Assembly (NCBI GenBank): GCA_026395515.1
Contig: JAPLYN010000005.1
Location: forward strand, 111,521-175,520
DNA from: Candidatus Peregrinibacteria bacterium
GTDB lineage: Bacteria > Patescibacteriota > Gracilibacteria > UBA1369 > LOWO2-01-FULL-3
Length of the DNA: 64,000 nucleotides
Direction: 5' to 3'
The translations under genes were made by a program, and so were the position numbers. Positions within the stretch are counted from its first letter, which is position 1; each line of letters opens with the position of its first letter. A model generated the notes under the pieces. That model saw nothing but the letters and a program-made list of their open reading frames with translations, was not told where the DNA came from and made no database searches. Of the stretch, positions 27,972-46,616 are shown piece after piece.

Positions 27972-28000
27972 TTGACATTTTAAGTATTCCATGTTATATT
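27972..28000 (+). promoter_or_regulatory. Consensus sigma70-type promoter P1 facing into the GC-rich island
   Basis: TTGACA (27972-27977), a 17-nt spacer ending in TGT, then TATATT (27995-28000). It begins 4 nt after the VirD4-like stop codon. Confidence 0.6.
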
Positions 28001-28186
28001 TCGGTGCTTTTGACGTATACATCTTTGTTGCGTTAGAAGTCGACCCTTGAAAACTTGTTGTAGAGAGCCATCTGTCTTTCAAAATGACATAATGCCTGCC
28101 GCAAGGTTGAGCTAGTGTACTGAAAGCCGGATCCTCTCTCTACCACTAAATGATTTTTGTTTAATCAATATTTACTACTACTTCAA

Positions 28187-28247
28187 GATCAGTAGGCCCT
28201 GCAAGCTGGGAAATGGGCAATTTTCCAGTTCGCAAAGCCTACTGATC
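28187..28247 (+). repeat. Nested inverted repeat / RNA hairpin in the leader of the first GC-rich gene
   Basis: Perfect 11-bp arms GATCAGTAGGC (28187-28197) and GCCTACTGATC (28237-28247) enclose a 9-bp hairpin. The hairpin is CTGGGAAAT (28206-28214) / ATTTTCCAG (28220-28228), with one G-U that exists only on the + strand. Confidence 0.6.
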
Positions 28248-28338
28248 CCCTCAAGGGAGATGGATGGCGAAGCATCCGCGGAGAACCCTAGTCTGGGCGA
28301 TCCAAAGATGGAGGCATATGCATGTGCCTTACAGTAAC

Positions 28339-28350
28339 GATTCTAGAATC
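28339..28350. promoter_or_regulatory. Perfect 12-bp palindrome (operator-like) just upstream of the RBS of the GC-rich gene
   Basis: GATTCTAGAATC is its own reverse complement. It ends 14 nt before the ATG at 28365, next to AAGGA. Confidence 0.4.
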
Positions 28351-28364
28351 AAAGGACACAGATC

Positions 28365-29072
28365 ATGCGTACCAAGCTTCTCACCACCCTCGTCGCCGCG
28401 GCCGTTCTGGCCTGCGGCATCTTCCTCCACGTCGAGATCCGCGCCAACAGCGCCCTCGCCAAGGAAACCCCCTCCACCAACCCGCAGCCCGCGCAGGTCA
28501 AGGTCGCGGCCCCGCAGCAGGACAACGTCGTCTTGACCGGTGCCCCCGCCGAACCCTCTCCGCCCGCCGCCGCCCCGCAGCCCTCCGACCCGACCCCCGA
28601 GCCGAAGAAGTGCGAAGACAACGACGGCTGCTCTGGGTCCGATCTGTGCGATCGCGGCGTGTGCATCACCGACCCCTGCACCAACGTCGTCTTCTCCAGC
28701 GACGACAGCTATGGGTGCAAAATGGCCCAGATGCTCCACTACCACGGAGTTCAGGACGGCGACGCCCTCAACTACCTGATCAAGCTGGGTCACGGCAAGC
28801 ACGCGGACAAGAAGCTCGAGCGCTTCAGCAAGGAGCTGGAAGCCCGCGCCCGCCGCGTATACTGGCAGACCAAGGGCTACGACATCGACGCCGCAAGCGT
28901 CGCTGCTTTGAAGCCCTCGGAATTGCGGGAAAAGATGGAAGACACAGCAACCATCGGCGATCTTATGCACTTGACGGTCCGCATGGACCAGAAAGTGTAT
29001 GCGGCCACCCACAAGAAGGCCGACCAGAGCACCGACGTTGAGCCCGTCAAGGAGGAGACCACCAAGAAGTAG
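28365..29072 (+). CDS. Secreted protein of foreign (high-GC) composition: signal peptide, Pro-rich linker, 6-Cys module, helical C-terminal domain
   Basis: Strong GC3 periodicity in this frame only. SD AAGGA lies 8 nt before the ATG. Signal peptide MRTKLLTTLVAAAVLACGIFL...ANSALA. Cys cluster CEDNDGCSGSDLCDRGVCITDPC...YGC. Confidence 0.8.
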   Translation: MRTKLLTTLVAAAVLACGIFLHVEIRANSALAKETPSTNPQPAQVKVAAPQQDNVVLTGAPAEPSPPAAAPQPSDPTPEPKKCEDNDGCSGSDLCDRGVCITDPCTNVVFSSDDSYGCKMAQMLHYHGVQDGDALNYLIKLGHGKHADKKLERFSKELEARARRVYWQTKGYDIDAASVAALKPSELREKMEDTATIGDLMHLTVRMDQKVYAATHKKADQSTDVEPVKEETTKK

Positions 29073-29196
29073 CGCTGGCTAGAGGCGTACACAGCTTCGC
29101 CAGCTGACCCCGCCAGAGGTTTTCCGGTAAACCAAAAGCCGCCCGGGTAAAAGAGGCGACAACAAAATCATTCAGGAGGAAGCTCGAGAGGAAACA

Positions 29197-29226
29197 CCCC
29201 GTTGCATCATGCGGCGGGGTTGTTTT
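29197..29226 (+). terminator. Intrinsic terminator of the first GC-rich gene
   Basis: CCCCGTTGC / GCGGCGGGG forms a 9-bp stem (two G-U pairs) with loop ATCAT, followed by TTGTTTT. Confidence 0.65.
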
Positions 29227-29231
29227 CCATA

Positions 29232-30689
29232 TTATCTTTTATCTAAAGCGTCCAATTCTCCCTTGTAGCCATCTAAACGTTTTTTCCAATATATTTTATC
29301 CGAATCACCCTTCTCCTTACGATCTTTTATCAAATTTTCATCTTCACCAGTAATATCAAACAAAAACTTCGCTGAACTCACCAGCTGCTTCAAAACATCA
29401 ACACGATTTTCACCAGCCTTAATTGGTTCTAGCATTTCCACAATTTCTTCATGACAAAACCTCATTGTATTAAGACGATCAAACGTGTCAGGATTATTTT
29501 TATCAGCATAATTACTAATTCTCAATCTTAACAGAGTAAATAATTTTACATATTTATAAGATTCAGGATTACTAAAATCATTATAAAATTCACTATATAA
29601 ACCCATTGCATCATGAGAAGTATTTCTCAAATTTTCAATTTCACCACCAGTACCAAATAATTTATTCATTCGTGTTTCATACTGAGAATCATTTTCTCCA
29701 TTAGCTTTAGTCAACCAATCCTTCCTTTCCAAAAACTCTATACCTCTTTCTTTATTATTCAAAAAATTATCAAAGACTTCTATTCCTTTCACAAAATCCT
29801 CATGATCAACATCAGCAATTTCATATTTAGCGAAAAATTCAGGAGTGCCAATCACTGGAATTTTATCAGCTTCTAGAGGTTTTGCAGGTGGCACGTCATT
29901 TTTTTTACCAGCATCACCAGGATTAGGATCAACTTGAGGCTTCTCGTCTGGAACAGCAACATTACCTGGACCGGGAGCAGGTTTATTTTTAGCAATCACT
30001 GCATAAGCAAATCTATCCTTCTCACCTTCTTTTTCACCCTTTCCTTTACCAGCCACTAATTTAATTTTTTTAACAGGAATATCCTTCAGCTGAAAAGTAT
30101 CCACATTTGCCAAATCCAAAGGAGAGTAAAGATTTTTAATCCTATCAAAAGCCAAGACAAAGTTAAAAAAACCATTAGGTCCATAAATCATCTGTTCACC
30201 ACCTTTATTTCTCACAATATTCCATATTTCTTTTTTTACATTTTTAGAGAAATCCTTCGGATCCATTCCATCCAATTTTTTAAAAGTTTCAAAAGCAGGA
30301 GATAGGGAATTGTACCATTCCAAAGTAGGCTCATCAAAAAGAGGCTTAAGCTTATCAATCTGAGAAGAACTTTCAGCAAATGGCTTATACCATTTAGTCT
30401 CATGCCACTTCGTTTCAAAACCAGTTGCATCGACCGAACCAACTAAGACATTAGGCTCAGCCGCATTGACCTCAGTAGACAACTTCTTATCCACCTTAGA
30501 ATCTCCTAAATCAAAAAATGCTGGTTTTATTTCAGCTTGAGAATCCAACTCTTCTTTCAGTTTAGTTCTATCATTAGAACCTTTAATCCCCATCAATTCC
30601 TTTGCCCAACCCAAACTTTCATCAGTCAAAATATTCTGACGTCTAGCCTCAGGTTTTTTCTCTAAATTTTGTGGTATTTCTCCTGCCAT
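29232..30689 (-). CDS. Orphan 485-aa protein, ultra-AT-rich, no signal peptide, central Pro/Lys-rich linker
   Basis: ATG start and a native-type TGGTATAAT promoter. Hand count gives 13/60 G+C in 29521-29580. No motif recognised. Confidence 0.7.
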   Translation of the reverse strand: MAGEIPQNLEKKPEARRQNILTDESLGWAKELMGIKGSNDRTKLKEELDSQAEIKPAFFDLGDSKVDKKLSTEVNAAEPNVLVGSVDATGFETKWHETKWYKPFAESSSQIDKLKPLFDEPTLEWYNSLSPAFETFKKLDGMDPKDFSKNVKKEIWNIVRNKGGEQMIYGPNGFFNFVLAFDRIKNLYSPLDLANVDTFQLKDIPVKKIKLVAGKGKGEKEGEKDRFAYAVIAKNKPAPGPGNVAVPDEKPQVDPNPGDAGKKNDVPPAKPLEADKIPVIGTPEFFAKYEIADVDHEDFVKGIEVFDNFLNNKERGIEFLERKDWLTKANGENDSQYETRMNKLFGTGGEIENLRNTSHDAMGLYSEFYNDFSNPESYKYVKLFTLLRLRISNYADKNNPDTFDRLNTMRFCHEEIVEMLEPIKAGENRVDVLKQLVSSAKFLFDITGEDENLIKDRKEKGDSDKIYWKKRLDGYKGELDALDKR

Positions 30690-30712
30690 ATTTTTGTTTT
30701 AAATATCATAAC

Positions 30713-30721
30713 ATTATACCA
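30713..30721 (-). promoter_or_regulatory. Extended -10 promoter element TGGTATAAT for the orphan gene
   Basis: The minus strand reads TGGTATAATGTT, 23 nt upstream of the ATG at 30689. Confidence 0.55.
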
Positions 30722-30754
30722 AAAAAACAGCTTTAAATAAAGCCAAACGAGCAC

Positions 30755-30797
30755 GTCAAAGCCGCGGAATCCTTTGTGGGGAAACCGCGGCATTGAC
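30755..30797 (-). terminator. Strong hairpin downstream of the GC-rich lipoprotein gene (terminator or island-boundary structure)
   Basis: 13-bp arms GTCAAAGCCGCGG (30755-30767) and CCGCGGCATTGAC (30785-30797) with one mismatch. There is no immediately adjacent T-tract on the minus strand. Confidence 0.45.
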
Positions 30798-30815
30798 TCG
30801 CATCACTGCGAAACG

Positions 30816-31379
30816 TCACTGAGGACAGGCGATCGGCACGAACTCTCCGACTCGAACACGGTAGCACTTGCCAGCCGCATTCGAGTCGGAAAGAGACGCC
30901 TTCTCCAGCCCATCTACCATGAGCGAAAACTTGGCAGAACCGAAGACGACACGCCAGCCGTCAGGGTACACAGACCCAGACAACTTGGCGAAACCGCCTT
31001 CACCGAAGACCGTGACCTTGCCGTCCACGAACGATTCCTGCGCCTTGTGGGGCACCGAACGCTCGCAACGGGTTGGATCGATCTTGCACATCTTGTCACG
31101 GTAGCTGGCAGCTTCAGCCTCGCGCACAATGGCCGCGTTGCCGAGATCCGCAGCGTACTGTTGGGCAGCCTTGAGACGCGCCTGAGCCGCCTGATCAGCC
31201 TTCTGTTGAGCAGCCAAAGCCGCTTCCTTCTCCCGACGCTCGTTGGCCTGGCTTTCGCCGTAGTTGGCCTCCGAGAGTTGGAGCTGGTCGAGGACGTTGG
31301 GCTGAACACGTTGGGCCGCACCACAGGCCGAGAGGTATAGAGCAACCAAGAGAACCAGAAACGAACGCGTGGCGTTCAT
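30816..31379 (-). CDS. Lipoprotein of foreign (high-GC) composition
   Basis: SD GGAGG lies 5 nt before the ATG. Signal peptide with lipobox LSAC (MNATRSFLVLLVALYLSACG). GC3-rich frame with an Ala/Gln-rich helical segment. Confidence 0.8.
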   Translation of the reverse strand: MNATRSFLVLLVALYLSACGAAQRVQPNVLDQLQLSEANYGESQANERREKEAALAAQQKADQAAQARLKAAQQYAADLGNAAIVREAEAASYRDKMCKIDPTRCERSVPHKAQESFVDGKVTVFGEGGFAKLSGSVYPDGWRVVFGSAKFSLMVDGLEKASLSDSNAAGKCYRVRVGEFVPIACPQ

Positions 31380-31491
31380 GGTAACCTCCGAGAAAAGAAG
31401 TAGTGTAGCAGTTATAAAACAAGGATCTTTAAAGTTTTCATCAGCTTGCGCATTGCTGGCGAATTACTTGGGAGCCGGCATCCATCATTCC

Positions 31492-31780: not shown

Positions 31781-31857
31781 TGGTGTCAAGGGGGAGATTT
31801 GAACTCCCGACCTCCGGGTTATGAATCCGACGCTCTAACCAACTGAGCTACCCTGAC
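31781..31857 (-). tRNA. tRNA with CAT anticodon, elongator type (Met, or Ile2 if lysidine-modified)
   Basis: 77 nt. G1-C72 is paired, the anticodon loop is TTCATAA, the T-arm is GGGAG-TTCAAAT-CTCCC, and CCA is encoded. Confidence 0.85.
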
Positions 31858-31881: not shown

Positions 31882-31956
31882 TGGTTGCGGGGGATGGATT
31901 CGAACCACCGACCTCCGGGTTATGAGCCCGACGAGCTGCCTCTGCTCTACCCCGCG
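31882..31956 (-). tRNA. Initiator tRNA-fMet (CAT)
   Basis: CGCGGGG...CCCCGCAACCA with a C1:A72 mismatch. Three G-C pairs close the anticodon stem (TCGGG-CTCATAA-CCCGG). Confidence 0.9.
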
Positions 31957-35487: not shown

Positions 35488-37614
35488 CTATCTACACTTC
35501 TTCTTAGAAACAAAATTATAACAAGCACCGCCCATTACAGATAGAATCACCAACCAGAACATTTCTGGACCAGTCTTGCTCGTACCACCCTTTAAATTCT
35601 TAATTTCAGCCTTTCCAGCGCTTCCATTTTGAACAGCAGGAGGTTGAACTACATTAACCACTCCACCAACAACTGCATTTGCAATCTTATCAAAACCGTC
35701 GCTAATATTTCCCTTAGCATCTACGGCAGCCACTGCAAAGTAATACTCAGTTCCATTCTTTAAACCAGGAATATACCAAGTAGTAGCATTAGTGAAAGTA
35801 TCTACAGCATTCACTAGAGAATTAGGAGAAGTACCATAATAAATACGATAATTTTTCACAGGATTAAGCAAAGAAGCAGGAGCAGACCAATTAAGAATGA
35901 CTCTACTGTCAGCTGGCTTAGCCACTAGACCCAAAACTTTTTCAGGTTTTGAAATTTGTACAGCACCCAATTTACCAACTTGAATAGATTTATCATCGGA
36001 TTTAGTTTCAACACCCAAATCGCTAACGAAACTAAAGCTCAATTTATAAGTACCGAAATCTATAGGAGCGTTAAATTTACCTTCATAATAACCAGCGGGA
36101 TTTTTTTCCAAAGTATAAACATTTCCAGAAACTACCACCTGAGCCTTGGACAAAGTATCACCAGTATAAGCTTTTACATTTATTGAAGTTCCTGGATCCA
36201 CTGGACCGGCAGGATCCACTACTATCTGTGAAACTTTAGACCCTTTAGTAAGAATAGAAAACTCAACAGCAGGACTATTACTAACTACAGTACCAATATC
36301 ATTTACTACAGCCACATACATCTTATGAATACCATCTGCCAATAAACTTGTTGTATAAGAAAATTTACCAGAAGAATCGGCTACGATAGACGACATCTCA
36401 ACATTATTATCAAAAATTTTTAATTTAGCACTTGCCGGAGCAGTACCGCTTACAACTTGTACGTTTGTACTAAAAGTACCAGGCAAAGGACTAATAAGAA
36501 CAACAGTAGAAGATGAAACTGGATTAGCACCAGAATTATCACCAGCCGAAACAGTTATAGACTTAGTTCCATAAGCACCTACATTAGCCAAATCAGTAAC
36601 TTTAAGATTATAGACACCTGGTTGTTTAAAGTTGAAAGCTAAACTAAATACACGTGAACCCTGATCAGATACTCCAAAAGTATAATCATCAGGAAGTGTA
36701 GCAAAACCAGCATTTGATCCATCTACACTAAATCGAACCTTGCCAGAATAATTTGAAACCAATTGGCTAGCAGCATCATAAGCACTTAACTTAATACTCA
36801 CACTTTGATTTGCTGTAACATTCGCAGGAACCTCTTGAAATTCAAAATGATCTACAGCACCAGAAGCATTACCTTCATTAGAGCTACCAAAAGCAGCCAT
36901 TCTAACTTTATTAGAAGTAAATAACTGATCAGCAGAGCTGAAATAAACAATTTTAGCTCGTGAAGTTAAAATTACATCCGAAGTAACATCATATACAGAA
37001 TAATTTACTAAACCAGTAGAACTTGGAATAATCCGGAAATTAACTTCTCCATTAACATTTGAAATATTAGTATTTCCTAAATAACTAATAGAATCAGAAT
37101 CGGAACTTGAAACCAATTTAACAATATGACCAGAAATTGGATTATTAAAATTATCTCTTAATTTTACAGTAAGATTAGCAACCTCAGAACCAGTATGAAC
37201 AACCTGATCTTTTGGAGAAAGCTCAGAGTTAGACATTGATAATTGACCTGCATTTATCTTGAAATAACTAGGAATCGCTTGCTGAGAACCTCCATCTACA
37301 GATAGTAAAAGAGTATATGTACCAGCAACTGAAGTGTAATAATCGGAAAGCTTCGAATAAGCTATACCAGAGTCATCTGCAATACCTTGAAATTGAAGCT
37401 GCTTACCACCAGGCTGAACTACAGTAAAAGTAGCTACAGAACCAACATTTAGCTTTGAAGTTCTCAAGATAGTAGGTGTACCAGCCACCGCATCCATACC
37501 ATAAGCCTGAACAGGCACAACAGTATAGTCTTGCACAGAAGAGGCAGACACAGCAGTAGAAACTACTCCGGCCGCGATAACTAAAAGCGATATTAATATT
37601 GTTTTTATTTTCAT
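35488..37614 (-). CDS. Surface-anchored adhesin-like protein: signal peptide, several Ig-like (Big) domains, FN3 domain, C-terminal TM anchor
   Basis: Signal MKIKTILISLLVIAAGVVSTAVSA. Repeated beta-rich Ig-like segments. FN3 (RVILNWSAP...YRIYYGTSP...EYYFAVAAVDAKGN). TM plus a KKKCR tail. Confidence 0.75.
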   Translation of the reverse strand: MKIKTILISLLVIAAGVVSTAVSASSVQDYTVVPVQAYGMDAVAGTPTILRTSKLNVGSVATFTVVQPGGKQLQFQGIADDSGIAYSKLSDYYTSVAGTYTLLLSVDGGSQQAIPSYFKINAGQLSMSNSELSPKDQVVHTGSEVANLTVKLRDNFNNPISGHIVKLVSSSDSDSISYLGNTNISNVNGEVNFRIIPSSTGLVNYSVYDVTSDVILTSRAKIVYFSSADQLFTSNKVRMAAFGSSNEGNASGAVDHFEFQEVPANVTANQSVSIKLSAYDAASQLVSNYSGKVRFSVDGSNAGFATLPDDYTFGVSDQGSRVFSLAFNFKQPGVYNLKVTDLANVGAYGTKSITVSAGDNSGANPVSSSTVVLISPLPGTFSTNVQVVSGTAPASAKLKIFDNNVEMSSIVADSSGKFSYTTSLLADGIHKMYVAVVNDIGTVVSNSPAVEFSILTKGSKVSQIVVDPAGPVDPGTSINVKAYTGDTLSKAQVVVSGNVYTLEKNPAGYYEGKFNAPIDFGTYKLSFSFVSDLGVETKSDDKSIQVGKLGAVQISKPEKVLGLVAKPADSRVILNWSAPASLLNPVKNYRIYYGTSPNSLVNAVDTFTNATTWYIPGLKNGTEYYFAVAAVDAKGNISDGFDKIANAVVGGVVNVVQPPAVQNGSAGKAEIKNLKGGTSKTGPEMFWLVILSVMGGACYNFVSKKKCR

Positions 37615-37707: not shown

Positions 37708-37735
37708 TTGAAAAATTAGCCGTTTTTGGTAGTAT
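37708..37735 (+). promoter_or_regulatory. Candidate promoter of the PKD-7TM/ATP-grasp operon
   Basis: TTGAAA (37708-37713), a 16-nt spacer ending in TGG, then TAGTAT (37730-37735); 24 nt before the ATG at 37760. Confidence 0.4.
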
Positions 37736-37759: not shown

Positions 37760-39298
37760 ATGAAAAAAATAATAAACAGCGTCGTAGCATTGCTTTTTTG
37801 CCTTACCCTAAGTGCACCAATTGCCTTCGCGGAAACGCAACAATCAGATTATCTAAGGCCTGTAATAAACCTTCCTAATGCCGTAGAGGTAAAGAAAAGT
37901 ACTATTTTTGATGCTTCCCAATCATATATATCAGAAGGAATAAAGAACGTTAAATATGAGTGGGATTTTGGTGACGGAAATCGCAATGAAGGGGTGGAAG
38001 TACTCCATTCTTTCAAAGAGCCAGGATACTACGACGTAAAATTAACTATAACCGATGGTAGAAACAAATCAGATGCAAAGGTAAAAGTCTTCGGCTACAG
38101 AAAACTAATAATCTTAATTACAGATCAAACTGAGAATAAAGATAGAATTCAAATTATTCAAAATTACGCAGAAAAAAAAGGTGTTTACCTTAAAATAATA
38201 GACAGTTATGGCAGCAGTACCGAGTTCATTTCAGAGGAAATTCTCACAAAAAAACTTACGGAAGCCATGGAAGATCTCCAAAAAGCAAAGCAAATCGCCA
38301 TTTGGAGTAAAGAAAACTCAGGACTAAATGCCATTTCCCGTTTCATACAAAATAATACCGGTAAAATTGCTAGTGATTTCAGCCAAAAAACATTAATAGT
38401 CCTAGACAACGCAGTAGAAAGTAAGATTGAACGTACTCAACGCCAATTCAACCTCATTAAACCTAAAACAATAATTGTAACCAAAGAAGGAGCAATTGAT
38501 GCCTTGATTGAAAGTTTATCCGAAGACGAATTTATTAATAGCCTTAAAGAAAGAGGAAGCGTTTACCAGATAGTAGATTCAAAAAGTGGTAAATTATTAC
38601 CTTGGAATTTCATGAGCTACTTCGTTAACGCTCTAGTCAACAACGGCATTCCAGATAATACAATTGCCCTTCTTCTACTACTACCAGTGATTGCAACAGT
38701 AGTAGCCGTAATGAGACAAGTCGTAGGAATCACAACCTTTGGTATATACACTCCTACCATCATGACCCTCTCTTTCTTGATAATAGGAATACAGGCCGGA
38801 CTCCTCACACTACTCGTAGCGATTCTAGTAGGAATAGCCGCCAAGCCACTATTGAAAAAGGCCAGAATGCTATTTATCCCCAAAATGGCCATAGTTCTAA
38901 CAATCGTAACTCTCGCTTTATTTTTAATTTTAATTTCCGCAAATTACTTCGGATTTTTCAATGCTCAGTTCCTTTCAATTGCCATCTTCCCGATGCTAAT
39001 TTTAAGCACCTTAGTTGAAAAATTCATTACAGCAAGAACCGAAAACGGACTCTCCTCAGCAGCAGTCTTAATGTTTGAAACACTCATCGTAGCAATCATT
39101 GCCTACTTTATTGCTGGAGGAGAAATAGATCTTGGATTCACAGTAATAAAATTGGAATTCGTAAAAAGAATGATGCTCACATATCCAGAATTAGTTTTTC
39201 TCTTAATATTTGCTGACGTACTTCTAGGAAAGTGGACAGGATTAAGAGTTCTAGAGCGCATTCGTTTTAGAGAAATATTACGTCATATTGAAGAATAA
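37760..39298 (+). CDS. Membrane protein: signal peptide, extracellular PKD domain plus unknown domain, C-terminal 7-TM module of the '7TM usually fused to inactive transglutaminase' type
   Basis: PKD signature YEWDFGDGNRNEGVEVLHSFKEPGYYDVKLTITDG. Seven hydrophobic helices from about aa 295. The C-terminal motif is GKWTGLRVLERIRFREIL. Confidence 0.65.
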   Translation: MKKIINSVVALLFCLTLSAPIAFAETQQSDYLRPVINLPNAVEVKKSTIFDASQSYISEGIKNVKYEWDFGDGNRNEGVEVLHSFKEPGYYDVKLTITDGRNKSDAKVKVFGYRKLIILITDQTENKDRIQIIQNYAEKKGVYLKIIDSYGSSTEFISEEILTKKLTEAMEDLQKAKQIAIWSKENSGLNAISRFIQNNTGKIASDFSQKTLIVLDNAVESKIERTQRQFNLIKPKTIIVTKEGAIDALIESLSEDEFINSLKERGSVYQIVDSKSGKLLPWNFMSYFVNALVNNGIPDNTIALLLLLPVIATVVAVMRQVVGITTFGIYTPTIMTLSFLIIGIQAGLLTLLVAILVGIAAKPLLKKARMLFIPKMAIVLTIVTLALFLILISANYFGFFNAQFLSIAIFPMLILSTLVEKFITARTENGLSSAAVLMFETLIVAIIAYFIAGGEIDLGFTVIKLEFVKRMMLTYPELVFLLIFADVLLGKWTGLRVLERIRFREILRHIEE

Positions 39299-39300
39299 AC

Positions 39301-41697
39301 ATGTTTCCATTTTTTTCTAATAAAGGAATTCTAGGCATCAATGCTAGAAATCTCCTCTACATGAGGCCATACAATCCTAAAAAGGCTGTAAAATTAGCCG
39401 ATGACAAAATCAAGACTAAACAATTTTTATCTGCCCGTGATATTCCAGTACCTAAACTTTACGGAATAATTAGAGACACTATAGAATTAGAAAAATTTGA
39501 TTTCAATGCTCTTCCAGACTCCTTCGCACTAAAACCAAACACAGGATACGGAGGTGAAGGAATCATCCCAGTGACAGAAGTGAAAGATGGATATTACTAT
39601 ACAGCCGGTGGAACCAAATTGAGTAAGGAAGAAATGAAAGACCACATCAGAGATATTTTAGACGGAAGGTTTTCCATTTCTAACGTAAGCGATTTTGCTT
39701 TCTTCGAACAGTATATTGAAGCAGATGAAAGAATAGGAAAATATTCCTACGAAGGACTTCCTGATATCAGAGTTATCGTCCACAATTTGATTCCTGTGAT
39801 GGCAATGCTCAGGCTTCCAACAAAAGAATCAAAGGGAAAAGCTAACCTACACATTGGAGCAGTAGGAATAGGTATAGACATAGCGAAAGGACAAACAACA
39901 CACATCTCATACAAAAATAGAATTATAGAAGAACTACCCGATGGTATGGGTAGTATAAAAGGATTAAATATTCCATTCTGGGATCAAATTCTCACAATCG
40001 CCTCCACAGTTCAACTTGTAACAAATTTGGGATACATGGCGGTAGATATATGTATAGATAAAAATACCGGTCCAGTACTTTTGGAAATAAATGCCAGAGC
40101 CGGACTAGGAGTTCAAATTGCAAATTTAGCACCACTTAGAAAACGTCTAGAAAGAATTGAAGGAGTAAAAGTTACCACTCCAGCAAAGGGAGTTAGAATA
40201 GCCAAGGACATGTTCGGAAATATAGTAGAAAAAGGAATCGCCCAAATTTCCGGTAAACAAGTAATAAGCATCAACGAGAAAATAGAAATAATTCAGAAAC
40301 AAAATACTATACAAATAGCTGCGAAAGTTGATACCGGTAAAAAAATAAGTATTTTAGATGAAGAGACAGCTATAAAATGTGGGCTTCTAGACAACGAAAA
40401 CGACTACGACGATGAAAAATCAACACTCAAGCTGAAATTTACACTTAAGGGAAAAAGAATTCATACGATTGTTGAAATAGAAAAAATTCCAAACAAAGAA
40501 TATAAAATAATTCTTGGGACAAGAGACCTACAAGAATTTTTAATAGACACAAATTTAAATCAAGAAAAGAAAGATCAAAAAAACAATAAGAACGAGAGCA
40601 CGAATTCAGAAAAAGAAGAGATTTTTAAAAAAATAAATTTCTTTGAAACTGATCAGCAAATAATAAATTTAGATAATAAAATTAAACTTCTTTATCACCT
40701 CAGACCAATCAATTTAGAAGAGGAGAAAAAGAAGTTTTTCAAAAACACCAACTACAATCCAGAATTCGAATATCCAACTATGAAGTTCAACGCAATAGAC
40801 ATACTGGACGAATTAGGAAAAATAGAAACGGATTCCTCAACCCTCGGTAAAATATACGAAGAGAAGAAAAAAGAAATTATCAAAAAAATTAATCTTCTTG
40901 AATCAATAGATGAAGAGAATTTTTCAAAATATTCAATAGAGCTATACGGTCAACCAACTGAGGAAGAATACGAAGAATGTAAGGAATTGATAAAAAAGAG
41001 TCCTTCATCTACAGAAGAGAAAGCCAATATTGACTCCGAACAAGCCAAAATGAAATTCGAAGAGGCATTTAAGAAATACGGACTAAGCAAATGGAAAGTA
41101 AAAATCAAAGAAGATTTAGTTTCTAATTGTGTGGCTGGTAAAAATAACAGTTTATTTATCAAAAGAAATGCCACATTTAGCGAAGATAGAATAGAAGAAC
41201 TCATTATCCATGAAATAGAGACACACATTCTCACAGCAGAAAATGGCAAAATGCAGCCATATGAAATATTAAATAGGGGATCCGCAAACTACTTAACAAC
41301 TCAAGAGGGACTCGCAATGTACAACGTAGAAAATCAAAGAAATAAAAAATTCACCGAGAATTCAAAAGCTCTTAGTCACGTAATAGCAATCTACGAGGCT
41401 ATGAACAGTAGTTTTAGCAAAGTTTATTCAAGATTAGTGAATCTAGGACTAACAAAGGAACAAGCCTTTAGATCAACAATCAAAGCAAAAAGGGGATTTA
41501 ACGACACAAGTAAACCAGGAGCATTCACCAAAGATTACCTCTACTTTAAAGGATATATTGAAGTTAAAGAATTCGTTAAAAACGGAGGAAAAATAGAAGA
41601 TTTATATCTTGGCAAATTCAATATAAAAGACCTGGAAACAATTAAAAGCATCAACGGTATCAAAGCCGCAAAACACCTTCCAAAGTGGCTTAAATAA
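39301..41697 (+). CDS. Fusion protein: RimK-related ATP-grasp amino-acid ligase + K/E/N-rich linker + DUF1704 (QEGLA-motif) metallocarboxypeptidase
   Basis: N-terminus ILGINARNLLYMRPYNPKKAVKLADDKIKTKQFL and LLEINARAGLGVQIAN (ATP-grasp). C-terminus HEIETH (41209-41226) and TTQEGLAMY (QEGLA at 41302-41316). Starts 2 nt after the upstream stop. Confidence 0.7.
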   Translation: MFPFFSNKGILGINARNLLYMRPYNPKKAVKLADDKIKTKQFLSARDIPVPKLYGIIRDTIELEKFDFNALPDSFALKPNTGYGGEGIIPVTEVKDGYYYTAGGTKLSKEEMKDHIRDILDGRFSISNVSDFAFFEQYIEADERIGKYSYEGLPDIRVIVHNLIPVMAMLRLPTKESKGKANLHIGAVGIGIDIAKGQTTHISYKNRIIEELPDGMGSIKGLNIPFWDQILTIASTVQLVTNLGYMAVDICIDKNTGPVLLEINARAGLGVQIANLAPLRKRLERIEGVKVTTPAKGVRIAKDMFGNIVEKGIAQISGKQVISINEKIEIIQKQNTIQIAAKVDTGKKISILDEETAIKCGLLDNENDYDDEKSTLKLKFTLKGKRIHTIVEIEKIPNKEYKIILGTRDLQEFLIDTNLNQEKKDQKNNKNESTNSEKEEIFKKINFFETDQQIINLDNKIKLLYHLRPINLEEEKKKFFKNTNYNPEFEYPTMKFNAIDILDELGKIETDSSTLGKIYEEKKKEIIKKINLLESIDEENFSKYSIELYGQPTEEEYEECKELIKKSPSSTEEKANIDSEQAKMKFEEAFKKYGLSKWKVKIKEDLVSNCVAGKNNSLFIKRNATFSEDRIEELIIHEIETHILTAENGKMQPYEILNRGSANYLTTQEGLAMYNVENQRNKKFTENSKALSHVIAIYEAMNSSFSKVYSRLVNLGLTKEQAFRSTIKAKRGFNDTSKPGAFTKDYLYFKGYIEVKEFVKNGGKIEDLYLGKFNIKDLETIKSINGIKAAKHLPKWLK

Positions 41698-42739
41698 TTA
41701 ACATCGCATCACCGAAGCTAAAAAATTTGTAACCTTCCTTCACCGCCATTTCATACAAAGAAAGTATTTTTTCAACAGGTTTTTTCACACCCTTAGCTTC
41801 CAAGAACGAAGACACCAACATAATCAAAGTACTTTTTGGTAAATGAAAATTTGTTATCAAAGAATCAACAACCTTCCATTCATAAGAACCTGGATAAATA
41901 AAGATATTTGTATTAGAAACACCAGGCACAAAAGAAGACTTGGCAGAATCAAAGGATGATTCCAACACTCTCACAGAAGTAGTACCGACAGCAATAATTC
42001 TCTTCTTTTGATCTATCGCACTATTAAGCTTACCAGAAACATCATTAGGCATTTCATATTCTTCAAAATGCATCTTGTGATCAGAGAGTTCTTCATCTAC
42101 TACAGGGGCAAAAGTACCAAGACCAATATGCAATATAACTTCCTCAATATCCACACCCAGTATTTTTAATTTAGAAAGAAGCTCTCTAGTAAAATGAAGA
42201 CCTGCAGTAGGGGCAGCTTTACTTCCTTCATTAGAGGCAAATACTGTCTGATAATCCTCGAAAACAGCCTTAGAATGCTTAATATAAGGTGGCAAAGGCA
42301 TTGATCCAAGCTTATGAATAACGGAATTTAAATCAACTCCGGAAAGTAAATTAAAAGATAAAACTCTTCTACCATCAGATAAAATCTCCAAAACAGTGCA
42401 TTCTAATTCTTCAGAAACTTTCACCGTAATTCCCAATTTAAAATTCCTAGCGGGTTTTAACAAAACTTCGTAGGTATTAAGAGAAAGCTGTTTAAGCAAA
42501 AAGATTTCTCTCAAAGAACCATTCACCCTAAACAAGATTCTAGCAGGTATAACCTTCGATTTATTCAAAACCAAAACATCATCATTGTTTAGGAATCTAG
42601 GCAAATCATAGAAATGACAATGCTCTACTGAATCTGTTTTCGAGTTATAAACCAAAAGACGACAAGCATCTCTAGGAACAGCTGGATCTTGAGCAATCAA
42701 AGACTCAGGTAAGTCATAATCAAAATCAGAAGTTTTCAT
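41690..42739 (-). CDS. queA: S-adenosylmethionine:tRNA ribosyltransferase-isomerase
   Basis: MKTSDFDYDLPESLIAQ, GTTSVRVLES, and FFSFGDAMLI at the C-terminus. The ATG at 42739 forms an ATGA overlap with the upstream stop (the listed 42748 is TTG). Confidence 0.9.
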   Translation of the reverse strand: MKTSDFDYDLPESLIAQDPAVPRDACRLLVYNSKTDSVEHCHFYDLPRFLNNDDVLVLNKSKVIPARILFRVNGSLREIFLLKQLSLNTYEVLLKPARNFKLGITVKVSEELECTVLEILSDGRRVLSFNLLSGVDLNSVIHKLGSMPLPPYIKHSKAVFEDYQTVFASNEGSKAAPTAGLHFTRELLSKLKILGVDIEEVILHIGLGTFAPVVDEELSDHKMHFEEYEMPNDVSGKLNSAIDQKKRIIAVGTTSVRVLESSFDSAKSSFVPGVSNTNIFIYPGSYEWKVVDSLITNFHLPKSTLIMLVSSFLEAKGVKKPVEKILSLYEMAVKEGYKFFSFGDAMLII

Positions 42740-43878
42740 GCAGACCAAGTAATAGATTGATCAGCCACGTCTGCACCTTGAGTTAAAGATTTATCACGTT
42801 TAATGACAATCAAAGACATATCATCATCTTGAACATGACCTTTAGCGAAAGTAGAAACATCCTGAGCGATGTGGTAATTAACACCTTCGGCAGAATATTG
42901 AGGAGCAAATTCTATTAAAGCATTCTTCAATCTTTCCAAACCATATAATTCACCTGCAGCATTTCTAGCTTCCGTAATTCCATCACTATAAACAACAACG
43001 AAATCACCATCATTCCAACTAATTTCTTGTTCTTTAATCAATTTAGAATTATCCGGAACCATACCCAAAGCTATACCACCGGACAAAATTGCATCACAAA
43101 CTCCAGTATCAACATGGTAAACCAAAATATGCTCATGACCAGCACCTACATAGGTAAGCTTTTGAGCTTTAACATCCCAAGAAAGCATTACCATTGTCAT
43201 ATACATCGCACGTTTGATATGACGCTTAATATAGCGATTCACACTTACAAGTATTTCATAGGCAGAGCTACATGAATCAGCAAAAACACTGATTAAAGAA
43301 GTTGCCATAGTCATAATTAAAGCAGCAGCCACTCCATGGCCTGTCACATCACCGATAAAGATATAAGTCTTATCCTTTGAAGTGATGAAATTGAAAATAT
43401 CGCCACCAACTTCTGAAGCAGGCTTATTTTTAGCAATCACTTGAAGACCTGAGATCTTAGGAGAACTTAAAGGTAAAATATCTCTTTGCAAACTAGATGC
43501 AATTGCCAATTCGTCTATCATCCTTTCTCTATCTTTAATATCAGAACTAACCTCACTAAATCCTTTAGTAACTTGATTAAAGAAATGGGCCAAAACTCCT
43601 ATTTCATCAATTCTATTAGTGTAAATTTTCTTATAAGGTTTTCCGGCCACCAATGCCTCCATTTGTTCCAAAATAACATCAAGGGGTTTTACAAATACAA
43701 GATAAGAAAACAGAGCAAAAATTAACAACAAAGACAGAGCAAAATAAACAAAATAATCAGTAGTAACAACTAAAGCTTTTGAACCAGAAAAATAGTACAA
43801 AACAGCTGCAGATACTCCTGAAACTAAAAACAGAAGTATAAGTAATTTTCTAACTAAACTGATTCTGAATAATTTCAT
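42736..43878 (-). CDS. Membrane-anchored HAMP + PP2C/SpoIIE-type serine phosphatase (RsbU/RsbP-like)
   Basis: Two N-terminal TM helices, HAMP (RIDEIGVLAHFFNQV), PP2C motifs GGDIFNF, GDVTGHGVAAALIM, YSDGITEA, DDMSLIVI. Confidence 0.85.
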   Translation of the reverse strand: MKLFRISLVRKLLILLFLVSGVSAAVLYYFSGSKALVVTTDYFVYFALSLLLIFALFSYLVFVKPLDVILEQMEALVAGKPYKKIYTNRIDEIGVLAHFFNQVTKGFSEVSSDIKDRERMIDELAIASSLQRDILPLSSPKISGLQVIAKNKPASEVGGDIFNFITSKDKTYIFIGDVTGHGVAAALIMTMATSLISVFADSCSSAYEILVSVNRYIKRHIKRAMYMTMVMLSWDVKAQKLTYVGAGHEHILVYHVDTGVCDAILSGGIALGMVPDNSKLIKEQEISWNDGDFVVVYSDGITEARNAAGELYGLERLKNALIEFAPQYSAEGVNYHIAQDVSTFAKGHVQDDDMSLIVIKRDKSLTQGADVADQSITWSA

Positions 43879-44237
43879 TTAGTCGCAGAGTTTAAATAAT
43901 CATTAAGAGAATCGAAAACCGGCACTATATCAGCAATACCAATAGCAGTAAAAATATCCTTAACATTTGCATTCAAACTGACTACAACCAATTTTCTATC
44001 ACGTTGAATCAAATGAGTGTGAACCTCCATCAAAAATCCAATGCCCTCACTATTAATATATTTCAATTTACCAAAATCAAAGATCAAAGACTTCAGCTCA
44101 AAAGCCTTCACGAAATTAGTTAATTCATCTTTGATTTCAGCAAAACCAGCTTTATCAAATTCACCATCAAAATCTACAACCTGTAAGTTTTGAGTTTTAT
44201 CAGCTTCCAAAAAGTTAATTTTTAAATTTGCATTCAT
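43875..44237 (-). CDS. STAS-domain anti-sigma-factor antagonist (SpoIIAA/RsbV-like)
   Basis: 120 aa with LKYINSEGIGFLME (phosphorylatable Ser context). ATGA overlap with the phosphatase gene. Confidence 0.8.
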   Translation of the reverse strand: MNANLKINFLEADKTQNLQVVDFDGEFDKAGFAEIKDELTNFVKAFELKSLIFDFGKLKYINSEGIGFLMEVHTHLIQRDRKLVVVSLNANVKDIFTAIGIADIVPVFDSLNDYLNSATK

Positions 44238-44240
44238 ATT

Positions 44241-46616
44241 TTATAAATTATTTTTTACTAAGGAATTAATAGTTTCAACCTCTTCATATTCATCAATCAA
44301 AGTATACAACTTTTTCAAATGAGATAAAGAATCATTAGAGAAGGACTCAAGGTTCGAATGATTATTCTTAACTTTCAATTCTTCAACCTTCTGAGAAACA
44401 ACATGCTTCATGATCTTATCAATATTTTTATAAATTCGCACGTCAACATTCTTAATAGAGCTCTTAATTTTTTTAACCATATGCTCATCTCCATTAAACA
44501 ACAGATCAAGAATAGAAGAAACTGAATGATAGAAACCCATTTTAGCCAACGAAATAGCGCTGTACATCCTTAGATCAATGTCGTCAGAATCAAGATATTT
44601 CAAGCAAACAGATTTTTTACTCTTCATATTTAATTCACCAATGGCCAATAAACCATACATAATTCTATCCTTCTTATCTGAATAAATAAAAGAATTAATG
44701 ACGTGCAATGCTTCATCTCTATATTTTTTAAAATTCACTAGAGCCATAGCCGCATTCAACTGATAACTTAAATTTTTAGAGTAAAGATATTCCTCCAAAA
44801 TTTTTGCGATCTTATCATCATCACACTTACCTAAAGCAAAAATAGCATCTGATTTATGATCTGAATTTTTGGAATGCAAAACTTTGAACAAAAATTCTAC
44901 GGTAGAAACGTTACTCAAAAGAGACATTAAATAAATAATTTTAGCTAAAATCTGTTTATCTTTCTCCTCCTTATATAAACCCTTCAACGACTCAATTAGT
45001 TCATACTTGATAAATAAATACTCCTTAGAATAAGAATTTAAAAATTTAAATGAAATTAAAGTATCCAATGCAGCTTCACGTATTTCCGCCTTCTCAGAAC
45101 TCAAACAAGAAATAATGTCTAGCACAGTATCAGGCGACTGTAATTCTGACATAACAGCCAAAATTTTAACTTTAATTGAGGCTAATTCGTCAGACTTAGC
45201 TAATAGAGTTTTAAGAGTAGATAATGCCAATTTATGACCTCTTTGAGCTAGCAGATCAATTGCATTAAATCTAATATGCTTTTCATTGGAGTTAAGCAAT
45301 TCCTCAGTAACAACCTTTGTATATTTTTCTTGCTGTCTATAAGTAATGTAGAAAAATATCAAAGTACAAACAACCATCGCAATATTCAAAGCCAAATTCA
45401 AAGAACTTCCTTCAAATATTTTATCAAGAACAATCACGAAAAGAGTTCCAAGCAAAGCTCCCAAAGGCCTCACAACACCTTCAAGAAACTCCCTGAGATG
45501 TTCTCTTACTTTTTCTTTAACTGCGTAATAAGAAATATGATAAGTATTAGTATGAATAACTGAGGTAAGAGTGAAATTATTTTTAGCCAAAACAGCAGTC
45601 AAAAAGTCAAATCTGAAGAATAAACCAGCCAAACTAAGAAGAGTGACTAGTGGATGTAAAAGCATAGCCCCAACAACTCCAAGACTCGTAATCAAACGAC
45701 TTCCTAAAAAGATCTCAACTATCAAAGCAGAAGCACTGAAAAGAACAAACAATAACCCCAAATTGTGAATAAAAGCGTGTTCAAAGCCACTTCCAGCTTC
45801 AAAAATTACATGAGAAACATTTTGATAAACAACTTTGGTATATTGAAATTCAATAAGATTAAAGATTACCCACTGAAAAAGAACTATAAAAATTAAACCA
45901 AAAACAAAGGAAGAGTGAGACTTACTATCAAAAGCCTGCTTGAGCTGACTAAAGATTCCATCAGGTCCCTTTTCGTGATTTTTTTTATGAACCAATTCCA
46001 CTTTATCCTCATCGAAATCAAAGAATAACAGAAGTGGAATGAGTAAAAAAAGCACACTTACCATCAAATAGATAAAACTAGATAATGAGAAATAGCTAGA
46101 CAATAGAGTTACTAATAAACCAGCAACTATACCTCCCAACGTCTCAGACACCTCAATAACAGGAAAAGTTCTTTCTGAAGTAAGTGGATCAAACAATTCC
46201 TCCACATAAGCAATCATAATAATTCTCAATTGATTCAATAAAATAGAGATAGAAAGTATCAATAAAGAGAAAAATAAAATTGCGTGAGTATTTACGACCA
46301 CAGCAGCAACAAAAAGAAACAATCCAGAAAGAACAATAGTAGAAAGCATAACCGCCACCCTTGTCATTCTCTCGAAGAAAAGCGAGTAAACAACACTTCC
46401 AATAATGGAAAAAACGGCATTAATAACAAAAAGATAAGGCAAAGATAAAATTCCATACCTACTTACAAACATAGCGACTAAAACCGTCCATCCTACAACA
46501 AATGAAGTTCTATAAAGAAATTTTATAACCAAAGCAAAAATCACACGTGACCATTCATTACCCCTTATATTAAAGAAGCGGTTCAATAACGAAATTTCCC
46601 TCAAAGACTCCAACAT
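44241..46616 (-). CDS. Polytopic transporter-like N-terminus (MFS / TLC nucleotide-transporter-like, about 12 TM) fused to a C-terminal HEAT-repeat domain
   Basis: About 430 aa of TM helices, then repeated helical pairs (AIDLLAQRGHKLALSTLKTLL, EKAEIREAALDTL, DLRMYSAISLAKMG). Confidence 0.6.
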   Translation of the reverse strand: MLESLREISLLNRFFNIRGNEWSRVIFALVIKFLYRTSFVVGWTVLVAMFVSRYGILSLPYLFVINAVFSIIGSVVYSLFFERMTRVAVMLSTIVLSGLFLFVAAVVVNTHAILFFSLLILSISILLNQLRIIMIAYVEELFDPLTSERTFPVIEVSETLGGIVAGLLVTLLSSYFSLSSFIYLMVSVLFLLIPLLLFFDFDEDKVELVHKKNHEKGPDGIFSQLKQAFDSKSHSSFVFGLIFIVLFQWVIFNLIEFQYTKVVYQNVSHVIFEAGSGFEHAFIHNLGLLFVLFSASALIVEIFLGSRLITSLGVVGAMLLHPLVTLLSLAGLFFRFDFLTAVLAKNNFTLTSVIHTNTYHISYYAVKEKVREHLREFLEGVVRPLGALLGTLFVIVLDKIFEGSSLNLALNIAMVVCTLIFFYITYRQQEKYTKVVTEELLNSNEKHIRFNAIDLLAQRGHKLALSTLKTLLAKSDELASIKVKILAVMSELQSPDTVLDIISCLSSEKAEIREAALDTLISFKFLNSYSKEYLFIKYELIESLKGLYKEEKDKQILAKIIYLMSLLSNVSTVEFLFKVLHSKNSDHKSDAIFALGKCDDDKIAKILEEYLYSKNLSYQLNAAMALVNFKKYRDEALHVINSFIYSDKKDRIMYGLLAIGELNMKSKKSVCLKYLDSDDIDLRMYSAISLAKMGFYHSVSSILDLLFNGDEHMVKKIKSSIKNVDVRIYKNIDKIMKHVVSQKVEELKVKNNHSNLESFSNDSLSHLKKLYTLIDEYEEVETINSLVKNNL

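Follow-up and report, generated by a model that had tools for sequence, protein, structure and literature searches.

Gene Organization of the ORF1-ORF2 Locus

The window analyzed here, a stretch of 64,000 nucleotides (nt) of contig JAPLYN010000005.1 from a Candidatus Peregrinibacteria bacterium (assembly GCA_026395515.1), carries on its forward strand two adjacent open reading frames (ORFs) that form a conserved, translationally coupled operon. ORF1 (37760..39298, +) encodes a RloB-like membrane protein of 512 amino acids (aa), and ORF2 (39301..41697, +) encodes a cytoplasmic three-domain enzyme of 798 aa with no hydrophobic segment. The junction reads TAA-AC-ATG, and the first-pass annotation of this DNA had therefore been exact in placing the ORF2 start 2 nt past the ORF1 stop. 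The pair is a divergent relative, in a genome of the Candidate Phyla Radiation (CPR), of RloB and RloC, which belong to the Pseudomonas aeruginosa stress-tolerance system RloABC. Phenotypes have been reported for this pair of an ATP-grasp ligase and a seven-transmembrane (7TM) protein (Lormand et al., 2025, mBio, PMC12239564); the earlier annotation, which correctly stated that such genes occur together, is thus out of date in calling their function unknown. The ORF2 product is one cytoplasmic chain composed of an intact ATP-grasp ligase, a decayed retropepsin-fold domain resembling RimB/RloA and an intact metallocarboxypeptidase of the MATCAP type.

ORF1 Is a PKD-7TM Membrane Protein With an Additional Ectodomain

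According to hydropathy and an AlphaFold2 (AF2) model, ORF1 consists of a signal peptide, an ectodomain of ~270 aa, seven helices and a basic cytoplasmic tail. The signal peptide (aa 1-24, ending ...PIAFA/E; 37760..37831, +) coincides with a hydrophobic window at aa 3-26, the cleavage site being placed by the AXA rule. It is followed by an extracellular PKD domain (aa 34-110; 37859..38089, +), recognized by the Pfam models PKD_4 (aa 34-106, 1e-15) and PKD (aa 61-110) and by Foldseek, with a template modeling (TM) score of 0.84 to the PKD domain of ColG. The 7TM_transglut module (aa 296-492; 38645..39235, +) comprises seven helices with the N-terminus outside and the C-terminus inside, and matches PF14402 over aa 300-506 with 92.7 bits (3e-26; cut-off 25). 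The signal peptide, the PKD domain and the C-terminal 7TM module that had been read from the sequence at first were therefore all borne out.

That reading had, however, overlooked an alpha/beta ectodomain of ~160 aa between the PKD and 7TM parts (aa 115-275; 38102..38584, +), modeled with a beta-alpha-beta pattern and a predicted local distance difference test (pLDDT) score of ~85. This domain gave no Pfam match and only weak Foldseek matches to SGNH/flavodoxin-like folds; it sits where proteobacterial RloB has an inactive transglutaminase. The RloB model NF052267 aligned with ORF1 at model positions 311-507 only, scoring 61.9 bits where the cut-off is 900. The cytoplasmic tail, TGLRVLERIRFREILRHIEE (39236..39295, +), closes with two glutamates at 39290-39295, which make it a candidate acceptor or recognition tail. 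The C-terminus had first been given as ERIRFREIL, which misses the final five residues RHIEE, the most telling ones of the tail; the protein in fact ends in ...RFREILRHIEE.

ORF2 Carries an Intact Ligase and an Intact Metallocarboxypeptidase

The N-terminal domain of ORF2 (aa 6-300; 39316..40200, +) is a RloC-type ATP-grasp ligase, matched by ATPgrasp_ST (PF14397; 234.8 bits, 1.5e-69, aa 16-287) and by TIGR02291, 'alpha-L-glutamate ligase-like' (285 bits, 6e-85, covering 285/317 model positions; curated cut-off 314.2). Over aa 5-305 its identity to RloC is 41% for the Legionella protein and 38% for that of Aeromonas. Judged by sequence, it is a member of TIGR02291/RloC at the domain level and not an equivalog. 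It stays below the RimK threshold (TIGR00768, 43.8 bits, cut-off 143.4), and the scores with the D-Ala-D-Ala ligase model NF002378 and the LysX equivalog hidden Markov model (HMM) are 14 and 17 bits, respectively.

The C-terminal domain (aa 446-798; 40636..41694, +) is a MATCAP/DUF1704 metallocarboxypeptidase. It matches PF08014 over aa 478-797 with 204.9 bits (2e-60; cut-off 27) and the QEGLA family TIGR02421 with 214.9 bits (2e-63), under the equivalog cut-off of 338.65, and Foldseek aligned the model with MATCAP (7z5g) with an E-value of 3e-12 and a TM score, normalized to the target, of 0.61-0.69. HEIETH (aa 637-642; 41209-41226, +) and QEGLA (aa 668-672; 41302-41316, +) lie at the 31-residue distance initially described, counted from E638 to E669, and align residue by residue with HEIGTH and EEGLA of human MATCAP. 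E638 falls on the Glu that was changed in the E-to-Q construct used for cryo-EM of MATCAP, and in MATCAP/TMCP1 its counterpart is the catalytic residue E281 (Nicot et al., 2023, PMC10499314).

We counted residue conservation in 250 non-identical full-length ORF2 orthologs. In the ligase, K36, K40, K78, E136, R157, N182, D249, E262, N264 and R266 are 96-100% conserved, and the set made up of the ATP-binding lysines, the hinge Glu, the Mg-binding D...E-x-N and a catalytic Arg (K36, K40, K78, E136, D249, E262, N264, R266), all present in ORF2, is kept in 241-250 of the sequences. In the peptidase, H637, E638, H642, Y664, E669, K730 and Y748 reach 98-100%, and HExxxH with its downstream Glu (H637, E638, H642, E669; the metal ligands and the catalytic Glu), likewise present, is kept in 248-249. 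Both enzymatic assignments of the first-pass annotation are hence supported by the Pfam and NCBIfam models (ATPgrasp_ST, TIGR02291, PF08014, TIGR02421), and a search for lost catalytic residues found the two sites 96-100% conserved.

The AF2 model of ORF2 has a mean pLDDT of 69.7, with ~85-95 in the MATCAP domain, ~76-81 in the middle domain and poor values in the ATP-grasp part. Compared with the Protein Data Bank (PDB) by Foldseek, it retrieved three classes of matches, namely MATCAP, retropepsin folds and ATP-grasp enzymes (ArgX/LysX, TTLL6, Ddl).

Two sequence variants were seen among the relatives. In P0282, a Patescibacteria fusion of 837 aa, the ATP-grasp domain is degenerate, with R, R, K, G, E, G, S, D in place of the catalytic residues, and the HExxxH...E of MATCAP is intact, making it a possible pseudo-ligase variant by its sequence. 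In ~10-13 distant homologs (e.g., the P0309 group), Trp occupies the otherwise invariant Gly positions 85, 87, 406, 670 and 732, which is the signature of lineages that read UGA as Gly (code 25), such as Absconditabacterales, translated in the source databases with UGA as Trp.

The Region Between the Two Enzymes Is a Decayed Retropepsin-Fold Domain

Between the two enzymes, a K/E/N-rich linker of ~230 aa had been proposed. In an alignment of 25 orthologs, aa ~305-420 proved instead to be conserved as a block (AKIDTG..., DDEKSTLK, KRIQTIV, IIGxRDLxxFLID), followed by ~25 variable residues and, from aa ~446, by homology to MATCAP. What had been taken for the linker thus resolves into a conserved retropepsin fold at aa ~316-420, the variable K/E/N-rich segment proper at aa 421-445 (40561..40635, +; mean identity 21%, pLDDT <50), and residues 446-600, which belong to MATCAP. 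The retropepsin-fold domain (aa 316-420; 40246..40560, +), similar to RimB and RloA, was delimited by Foldseek and profile alignment. Its best structural matches were Pseudomonas RloA (9g58) and RloA2 (9g59), with an E-value of 4e-4 and a probability of 1.0, followed by the Legionella DUF785 protein 2pma and the RVP domain of Ddi1, and in the profile alignment its DTG falls on the DSGA of Ddi1.

Profile searches gave less. The profile of the domain found in the PDB only a weak match to Ddi1 (E 0.69), and hhalign against a single Aeromonas RloA returned a 16-column match at the DTG (E 0.006, probability 6%) that is by itself no proof of homology. The window's own domain gave no PF05618 match, only gag-asp_proteas (E 0.007) and Asp_protease (E 0.012). 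The counterpart domains of more distant relatives do match PF05618 (RimB-like, 'Zn_protease') with 31-38 bits (cut-off 27), and one relative, P0293, combines ATPgrasp_ST, PF05618 and MATCAP. Because of the retropepsin-fold matches, the alignment of DTG with DSGA and the PF05618 matches of relatives, we describe ORF2 as a three-domain protein; the alignment, Foldseek and PF05618 together rule out a low-complexity linker.

The active-site triad of this domain has decayed across the clade. Among the 250 orthologs the Asp is kept in 70% (52 sequences have Asn), the Thr in 59% and the Gly in 34%; D[TS]G is intact in 73/250 (29%) and the Ala that should follow is lost. ORF2 itself reads DTGK (40330-40338, +), and its 90%-identical ortholog L003 reads DTS. 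In the class of ATP-grasp+retropepsin proteins that lack MATCAP, by comparison, DTGA or DSGA is kept in 74/74 distinct proteins, as in genuine RloA, whose D48N variant is catalytically dead (PMC12239564). Since the DTG has decayed throughout the clade, the retropepsin-like domain of ORF2 is probably a non-catalytic binding domain. It retains the conserved basic residues K319, K377, K379, R386 and R408. From these sequences we infer that the retropepsin domain may have lost catalysis once the MATCAP peptidase had joined the chain, and may persist as a binding or scaffolding module.

Fusions and Fissions Tie the Parts of the System Together

Full-length relatives of ORF2 (789-813 aa, 60-90% identity) occur among the 120 clusters listed, under Peregrinibacteria, Gracilibacteria and Patescibacteria names, and clustering at 90% identity leaves >120 clusters with the complete fusion, which is also full-length in 80 species genomes. 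When 1.84 billion representatives were searched exhaustively, 3745 relatives came up (E <= 1e-3). The best 150 of these, taken as 50%-identity representatives, were scanned with domain HMMs: at least 81 of the 150 have ATP-grasp and MATCAP in one chain, 36 have ATP-grasp with the retropepsin domain only, and 12 are standalone MATCAP proteins. In the species genomes of GTDB, 453 stretches encode a relative, and the best 80 of the 453 come nearly all from Peribacteria/Peregrinibacteria, complete chromosomes included, which assigns the organism of the window to this group. More distant ATP-grasp/MATCAP fusions include those of Absconditabacterales. The same full-length architecture recurs in hundreds of independent assemblies, which refutes the possibility, named at the outset as one that would overturn the reading, that a frameshift or assembly error had joined two genes; the >120 full-length clusters, the GTDB genomes and the complete chromosomes rule out such an artifact.

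The co-occurrence of the gene pair, which the first-pass annotation had proposed to survey, is equally general. In 77/77 loci that include upstream sequence, the gene immediately preceding ORF2 or its counterpart, on the same strand, encodes a 7TM protein (76 by tblastn, and by HMM the minimal 255-aa version of L080). Junctions of the ORF1-ORF2 type are spaced by -4 to +17 nt in 61/79 cases, and the pair outlasts the loss of flanking synteny (L062-L079).

The same parts are also found split or joined differently. In L083-85, a PKD-7TM protein, an ATP-grasp+retropepsin protein (428 aa) and a MATCAP protein (374 aa) are encoded by three overlapping genes, and in L095 the gene for a bare 7TM protein of 216 aa precedes that for a protein of 916 aa which combines ATPgrasp_ST, PF05618 and MATCAP. 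On the Halobacterium sp. DL1 plasmid CP007061.1 (L092 4164-5918), a 584-aa ORF with no annotation in the gene table of that record fuses a 7TM_transglut-like module to a RloC-like ATP-grasp domain, with 37% identity to ORF2. Classical RloABC copies were identified in Legionella (L090) and Aeromonas (L091). Independent fusions and fissions thus tie the 7TM, ligase, retropepsin and MATCAP parts together.

Two further arrangements were observed. At L087 6001-7092, a standalone MATCAP gene of 363 aa stands in the position of ORF2, directly before genes for SpoIIE and STAS proteins; neither an ATP-grasp nor a 7TM gene was found nearby, and this looks like a lineage from which both ligase and membrane partner have disappeared. 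The metagenome loci without MATCAP (L096-L175), on CPR-type contigs, show the recurrent order YebC, RuvC, 7TM, ATP-grasp+retropepsin and class A penicillin-binding protein (PBP), with RuvC in 45/80, YebC in 37/80 and the PBP downstream in 27/53 with enough sequence. Most of their 7TM partners are bare proteins of ~220 aa without an ectodomain.

The ORF1 and ORF2 proteins are already in public databases under automatic names, so that the protein itself is not a discovery; the literature searched contained no description of an ATP-grasp::DUF1704 fusion or of the ORF1-ORF2 operon.

The Glu-Glu C-Terminus of ORF1 Is Conserved

Among the clusters of ORF1 homologs, 119/120 end in ...RH(I/T/V)EE, the terminal Glu numbering two to five; the one that does not is a truncated sequence. 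At the level of species loci, with ORF2 identities of 46-90%, 74/77 end in EE, EEE or EEEE, and the residues before the terminal Glu drift (HIEE, HVEEE, YSEEE, HAEE, VTEE). Within the window, ORF1 is the sole ORF ending in EE among the 47 of at least 150 aa.

The codons GAAGAA could have been conserved as the ribosome-binding site of ORF2, with the EE tail as a by-product. All 17 loci in which the inter-gene gap is at least 40 nt still end in EE or EEE, and the terminal Glu codons use GAA and GAG at 144:42, compared with 3411:1195 across ORF2. Because wide-gap loci keep the EE and the codon ratio matches that of ORF2, the constraint acts on the protein, and the ribosome-binding-site explanation was ruled out.

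Nor is the EE end a general trait of 7TM_transglut proteins, as excluded by the non-acidic ends of proteobacterial RloB and by the 7TM partners of the 72 metagenomic systems without MATCAP. A terminal E or EE was seen in none of these 72 partners and a terminal D in two; the mean charge over their last six residues is +1.5. In other MATCAP-containing lineages the tails read ..YLKE (L083) and ..NVDAD (L095).

Neighborhood of the Operon

A promoter-like site (TTGAAA-16-TAGTAT with TG upstream; 37708..37735, +) lies in the 145-bp divergent intergenic region 5' of ORF1; since the number of such sites in this region does not exceed chance expectation, it is weak evidence for a promoter. In Peribacteria the flanking order is DivIC, MurC, CysS, YggT, a Big/fn3 surface protein and the ORF1-ORF2 pair, continuing with QueA, SpoIIE, STAS, a HEAT/MFS protein and MurJ. 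In the window, the surface protein (708 aa; Big_1/Big_13/fn3, signal peptide and C-terminal membrane anchor; 35488-37614, -) is divergent from ORF1, a position kept in 50/82 loci. On the other side, queA (- strand) converges on ORF2, the gene ends overlapping by 8 nt (41690-41697). It belongs to a stretch at 41690-46616 (-) that continues from QueA to a phosphatase of the SpoIIE type, an anti-sigma antagonist with a STAS domain and an MFS-like/HEAT-repeat membrane protein of 791 aa, a partner-switching-type module; the synteny is conserved.

Further upstream, a 907-aa homolog of TrwB/TraG-like coupling proteins (DUF87, TrwB_AAD_bind; 25245-27968, +) also precedes DivIC and MurC in related genomes. 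At L002, a syntenic locus, these two genes come immediately after the TrwB-like gene; in the window, ~3.5 kb at 28000-31400 have a GC content of 0.45-0.48 against ~0.35 elsewhere. The ORFs of this stretch have no Pfam matches, two being lipoprotein-like (28365-29072, +; 30816-31379, -), and two tRNA-Met genes (31781-31857 and 31882-31956, -) adjoin it. Ribosomal RNA was ruled out as the source of the high GC at 28-31 kb, Rfam giving only the two tRNAs there. The stretch may be an acquired island.

Discussion

Relation to Characterized Systems

RloABC is the closest characterized system to ORF1-ORF2. Common to both are a 7TM_transglut protein tightly coupled to a downstream ATP-grasp ligase, of the TIGR02291 type at the domain level in ORF2, a retropepsin-fold component resembling RimB/RloA and, at the C-terminal end of the 7TM part, the motif G-x-(W/Y)-x-G-(L/Y)-(R/K)-L-x-E-x-x-RF. 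ORF1, however, has the PKD and alpha/beta ectodomain and no inactive transglutaminase, and its last residues are Glu-Glu, those of RloB being ..AKARS or ..PGKDK. The retropepsin domain is internal to the cytoplasmic ORF2 and has lost DTGA, whereas RloA is a separate secreted protein with an active DTGA; no separate RloA gene was found beside the ORF1-ORF2 operon. ORF2 furthermore adds the MATCAP carboxypeptidase, and the host is a CPR bacterium, whereas 96% of RloB matches are in Proteobacteria (PMC12239564).

The RimK/RimB pair and its RimBK hybrid (Little et al., 2025, JBC, PMC11957791) likewise combine an ATP-grasp glutamate ligase with a retropepsin-like domain, sometimes in a single chain; their substrate is the C-terminus of S6, which ends in Glu, and ligation and removal are coupled. 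The order of the domains is RimB followed by RimK in the hybrid and ligase followed by retropepsin in ORF2, whose ATP-grasp domain is not RimK proper, whose retropepsin site is decayed, and which has a membrane partner and a MATCAP domain.

On the peptidase side, the vertebrate tubulin carboxypeptidases MATCAP/TMCP1-TMCP2 (KIAA0895L, KIAA0895; PDB 7z5g) share with ORF2 the fold, the HExxxH and the (E/Q)EG motif, and their known substrates are acidic C-terminal tails, ...EE(Y) (PMC10499314). ORF2 differs from them in being prokaryotic and fused to a ligase, with ~22% identity, no tubulin context and no microtubule-binding extensions. The proteobacterial DUF1704/TIGR02421 QEGLA proteins contain the same domain; they are standalone proteins of ~370 aa, and ORF2 scores under their equivalog cut-off. 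In Photobacterium damselae, the QEGLA gene A0J47_RS17025 is one locus tag away from RS17020, an ATP-grasp gene annotated as GshB, and both are induced 27-38-fold at low salinity (PMC10308900), which hints that the pairing of ATP-grasp and DUF1704 is more general, in Proteobacteria too, and linked to low osmolarity.

The LysW/LysX/LysK system and the tubulin code of TTL/TTLL with MATCAP/VASH/CCP offer an analogy of mechanism only, in which an ATP-grasp enzyme writes on a Glu or C-terminal carboxylate and a metallopeptidase erases or releases; the relationship shown is that of the shared ATP-grasp and MATCAP folds.

A Proposed Membrane-Docked Ligase and Trimmer

The first-pass annotation had proposed a writer/eraser pair made of a ligase that adds C-terminal amino acids and a carboxypeptidase that removes them. 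The idea is consistent with the sequence and has been strengthened by the split-gene versions and the Glu-Glu tail of ORF1; the retropepsin-like third domain had gone unnoticed. The PKD part may, as was suggested then, act as an extracellular sensor. The chemistry has three precedents: RimK lengthens S6 at its Glu-Glu terminus, RimB and RloA cleave poly-Glu (PMC11957791, PMC12239564), and MATCAP/TMCP enzymes trim acidic ...EE(Y) tubulin tails (PMC10499314).

We suggest that the 7TM protein would offer, with its C-terminal cytoplasmic end, a docking site to ORF2. The ligase would then add amino acids, most likely L-glutamate as RimK does, onto the carboxylate of a C-terminal Glu, the MATCAP domain would take C-terminal residues off again, and the pseudo-retropepsin domain, through its conserved basic residues, would hold the acidic tail. 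The favored acceptor would be the cytoplasmic ...H-I-E-E-COOH tail of ORF1 itself, whose length could serve as a reversible switch on the role of the 7TM/PKD protein in the cell envelope. The parts of this model differ in strength. That the two proteins cooperate at the membrane is very likely, and a chemistry of adding to and trimming an acidic C-terminal tail is moderately well favored. The assignment of that tail to ORF1 is tentative: the ORF1 -EE is a candidate substrate, by analogy with S6 for RimK, and it is the leading acceptor because it is invariant, free, on the cytoplasmic side and encoded next door, at the very place where the haloarchaeal fusion tethers the ligase. For the model as a whole, with the ORF1 tail as favored acceptor, we consider the chances to be about even. 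Its most specific version, a 'tail code' in which the ORF1 -Glu-Glu would be reversibly polyglutamylated by ORF2, with the ATP-grasp domain as writer, MATCAP as eraser and the pseudo-retropepsin as reader or holder, tuning an envelope process of ultra-small CPR bacteria, must be regarded as speculative.

Several observations weigh against the model. Proteobacterial RloB tails are non-acidic, and three loci, L059 (..KTLD), L080 (..FKNH) and L082 (..FKNN), have a fused ORF2 with intact catalytic residues and no EE, the ORF1 counterparts of L080 and L082 also lacking PKD. L107 and L120 have non-acidic tails although a MATCAP gene lies >2 kb downstream. The association of EE tail and MATCAP is largely one of a single clade against the rest and thus phylogenetically non-independent, and no 7TM gene was found within 6 kb of the Absconditabacterales fusion. 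The ORF2 model has a predicted TM (pTM) score of 0.48, its confidence being low both within the ATP-grasp part and for the placement of the domains relative to one another.

The loci that keep their enzymes intact without an EE tail would be accommodated by a different explanation, implicit in the picture of Rlo, in which the ATP-grasp domain makes a free product by polymerization, either poly-alpha-glutamate or some other small peptide, whose length is determined by the two peptidase-type domains and which the 7TM protein exports or presents to the envelope, the EE tail being a primer or docking motif and not a regulated modification. RimK indeed makes free poly-alpha-Glu and is stimulated by RimB (PMC11957791), and the rloA1-3 triple mutant is suppressed when either rloB or rloC is deleted, as though a product of RloB/RloC needed degradation by secreted RloA (PMC12239564). 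The basic 7TM tails of the systems without MATCAP could moreover bind a polyanion. We nevertheless consider this explanation rather unlikely for ORF1-ORF2: the 7TM_transglut family has no known transport function, the retropepsin-like domain is here cytoplasmic and mostly inactive, leaving no extracellular degrading partner, and the exact free Glu-Glu C-terminus in 74/77 species is left unexplained.

A ligase and a carboxypeptidase could also edit a cell-wall precursor in a Van-like manner, attaching and detaching the terminal residue(s) of a peptidoglycan stem peptide or a related envelope precursor, with the 7TM protein coupling this to the membrane step. This we judge improbable. RimK/RloC, RimB/RloA and MATCAP are families that indicate alpha-linked Glu tails, not D-amino-acid chemistry, and the weak match of the ATP-grasp model to D-Ala-D-Ala ligase folds has to be set against the HMM scores, 285 bits for TIGR02291 vs. 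14 bits for NF002378. The recurrence of DivIC, MurC, YggT and MurJ beside the operon in Peribacteria and of a class A PBP downstream in 27/53 loci without MATCAP would fit such a role, as would the cell-shape defects of rlo mutants and their sensitivity to cell-wall (beta-lactam) antibiotics (PMC12239564); synteny in a clade of small compact genomes is, however, weak evidence, and the pair outlasts these neighbors.

In LysW pathways, the logic of a C-terminal Glu carrier, an ATP-grasp enzyme and a metallohydrolase is established. The C-terminal Glu of ORF1 might correspondingly be a covalent handle to which the ATP-grasp domain attaches an amino compound (cf. LysX/ArgX) and from which the metallopeptidase releases the product (cf. 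LysK). ArgX/LysX are among the structural matches of the ATP-grasp model and the terminal Glu of ORF1 is conserved, but the operon contains no intervening pathway enzymes, the LysX equivalog HMM gives 17 bits only, and the number of terminal Glu varies from 2 to 5, a better fit to a homopolymer tail than to a single attachment point; we hold this explanation to be still less probable than cell-wall editing. Finally, that fusion and adjacency form no functional unit, being an assembly or annotation artifact or neutral synteny, for which one might cite fragmented database entries (P0349, L088) and the many sources that are metagenome-assembled genomes, was rejected as extremely improbable in view of the identical full-length architecture in hundreds of independent assemblies, complete chromosomes included, the strong purifying selection on catalytic residues, and the independent fusion and fission events that connect all parts.

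Significance

The membrane-docked ligase/trimmer model turns the writer/eraser idea into a specific in vitro test with a defined peptide, ...RFREILRHIEE. The combination of ATP-grasp and MATCAP known from the cycle of tubulin tails exists fused in bacteria, and, as a further point of evolutionary interest, a protease domain may have lost its catalytic triad after a second peptidase had entered the chain. If the tail code were true, the eukaryotic ATP-grasp/MATCAP pair of the tubulin code would have in it a bacterial counterpart and perhaps its evolutionary source, and Rlo-type systems would gain a first candidate class of substrates. In Pseudomonas, such ATP-grasp/7TM systems have a bearing on stress tolerance, on biofilm and on antibiotic sensitivity, and ORF1-ORF2 offers a concrete, testable substrate hypothesis for them as well as for the bacterial homologs of MATCAP.

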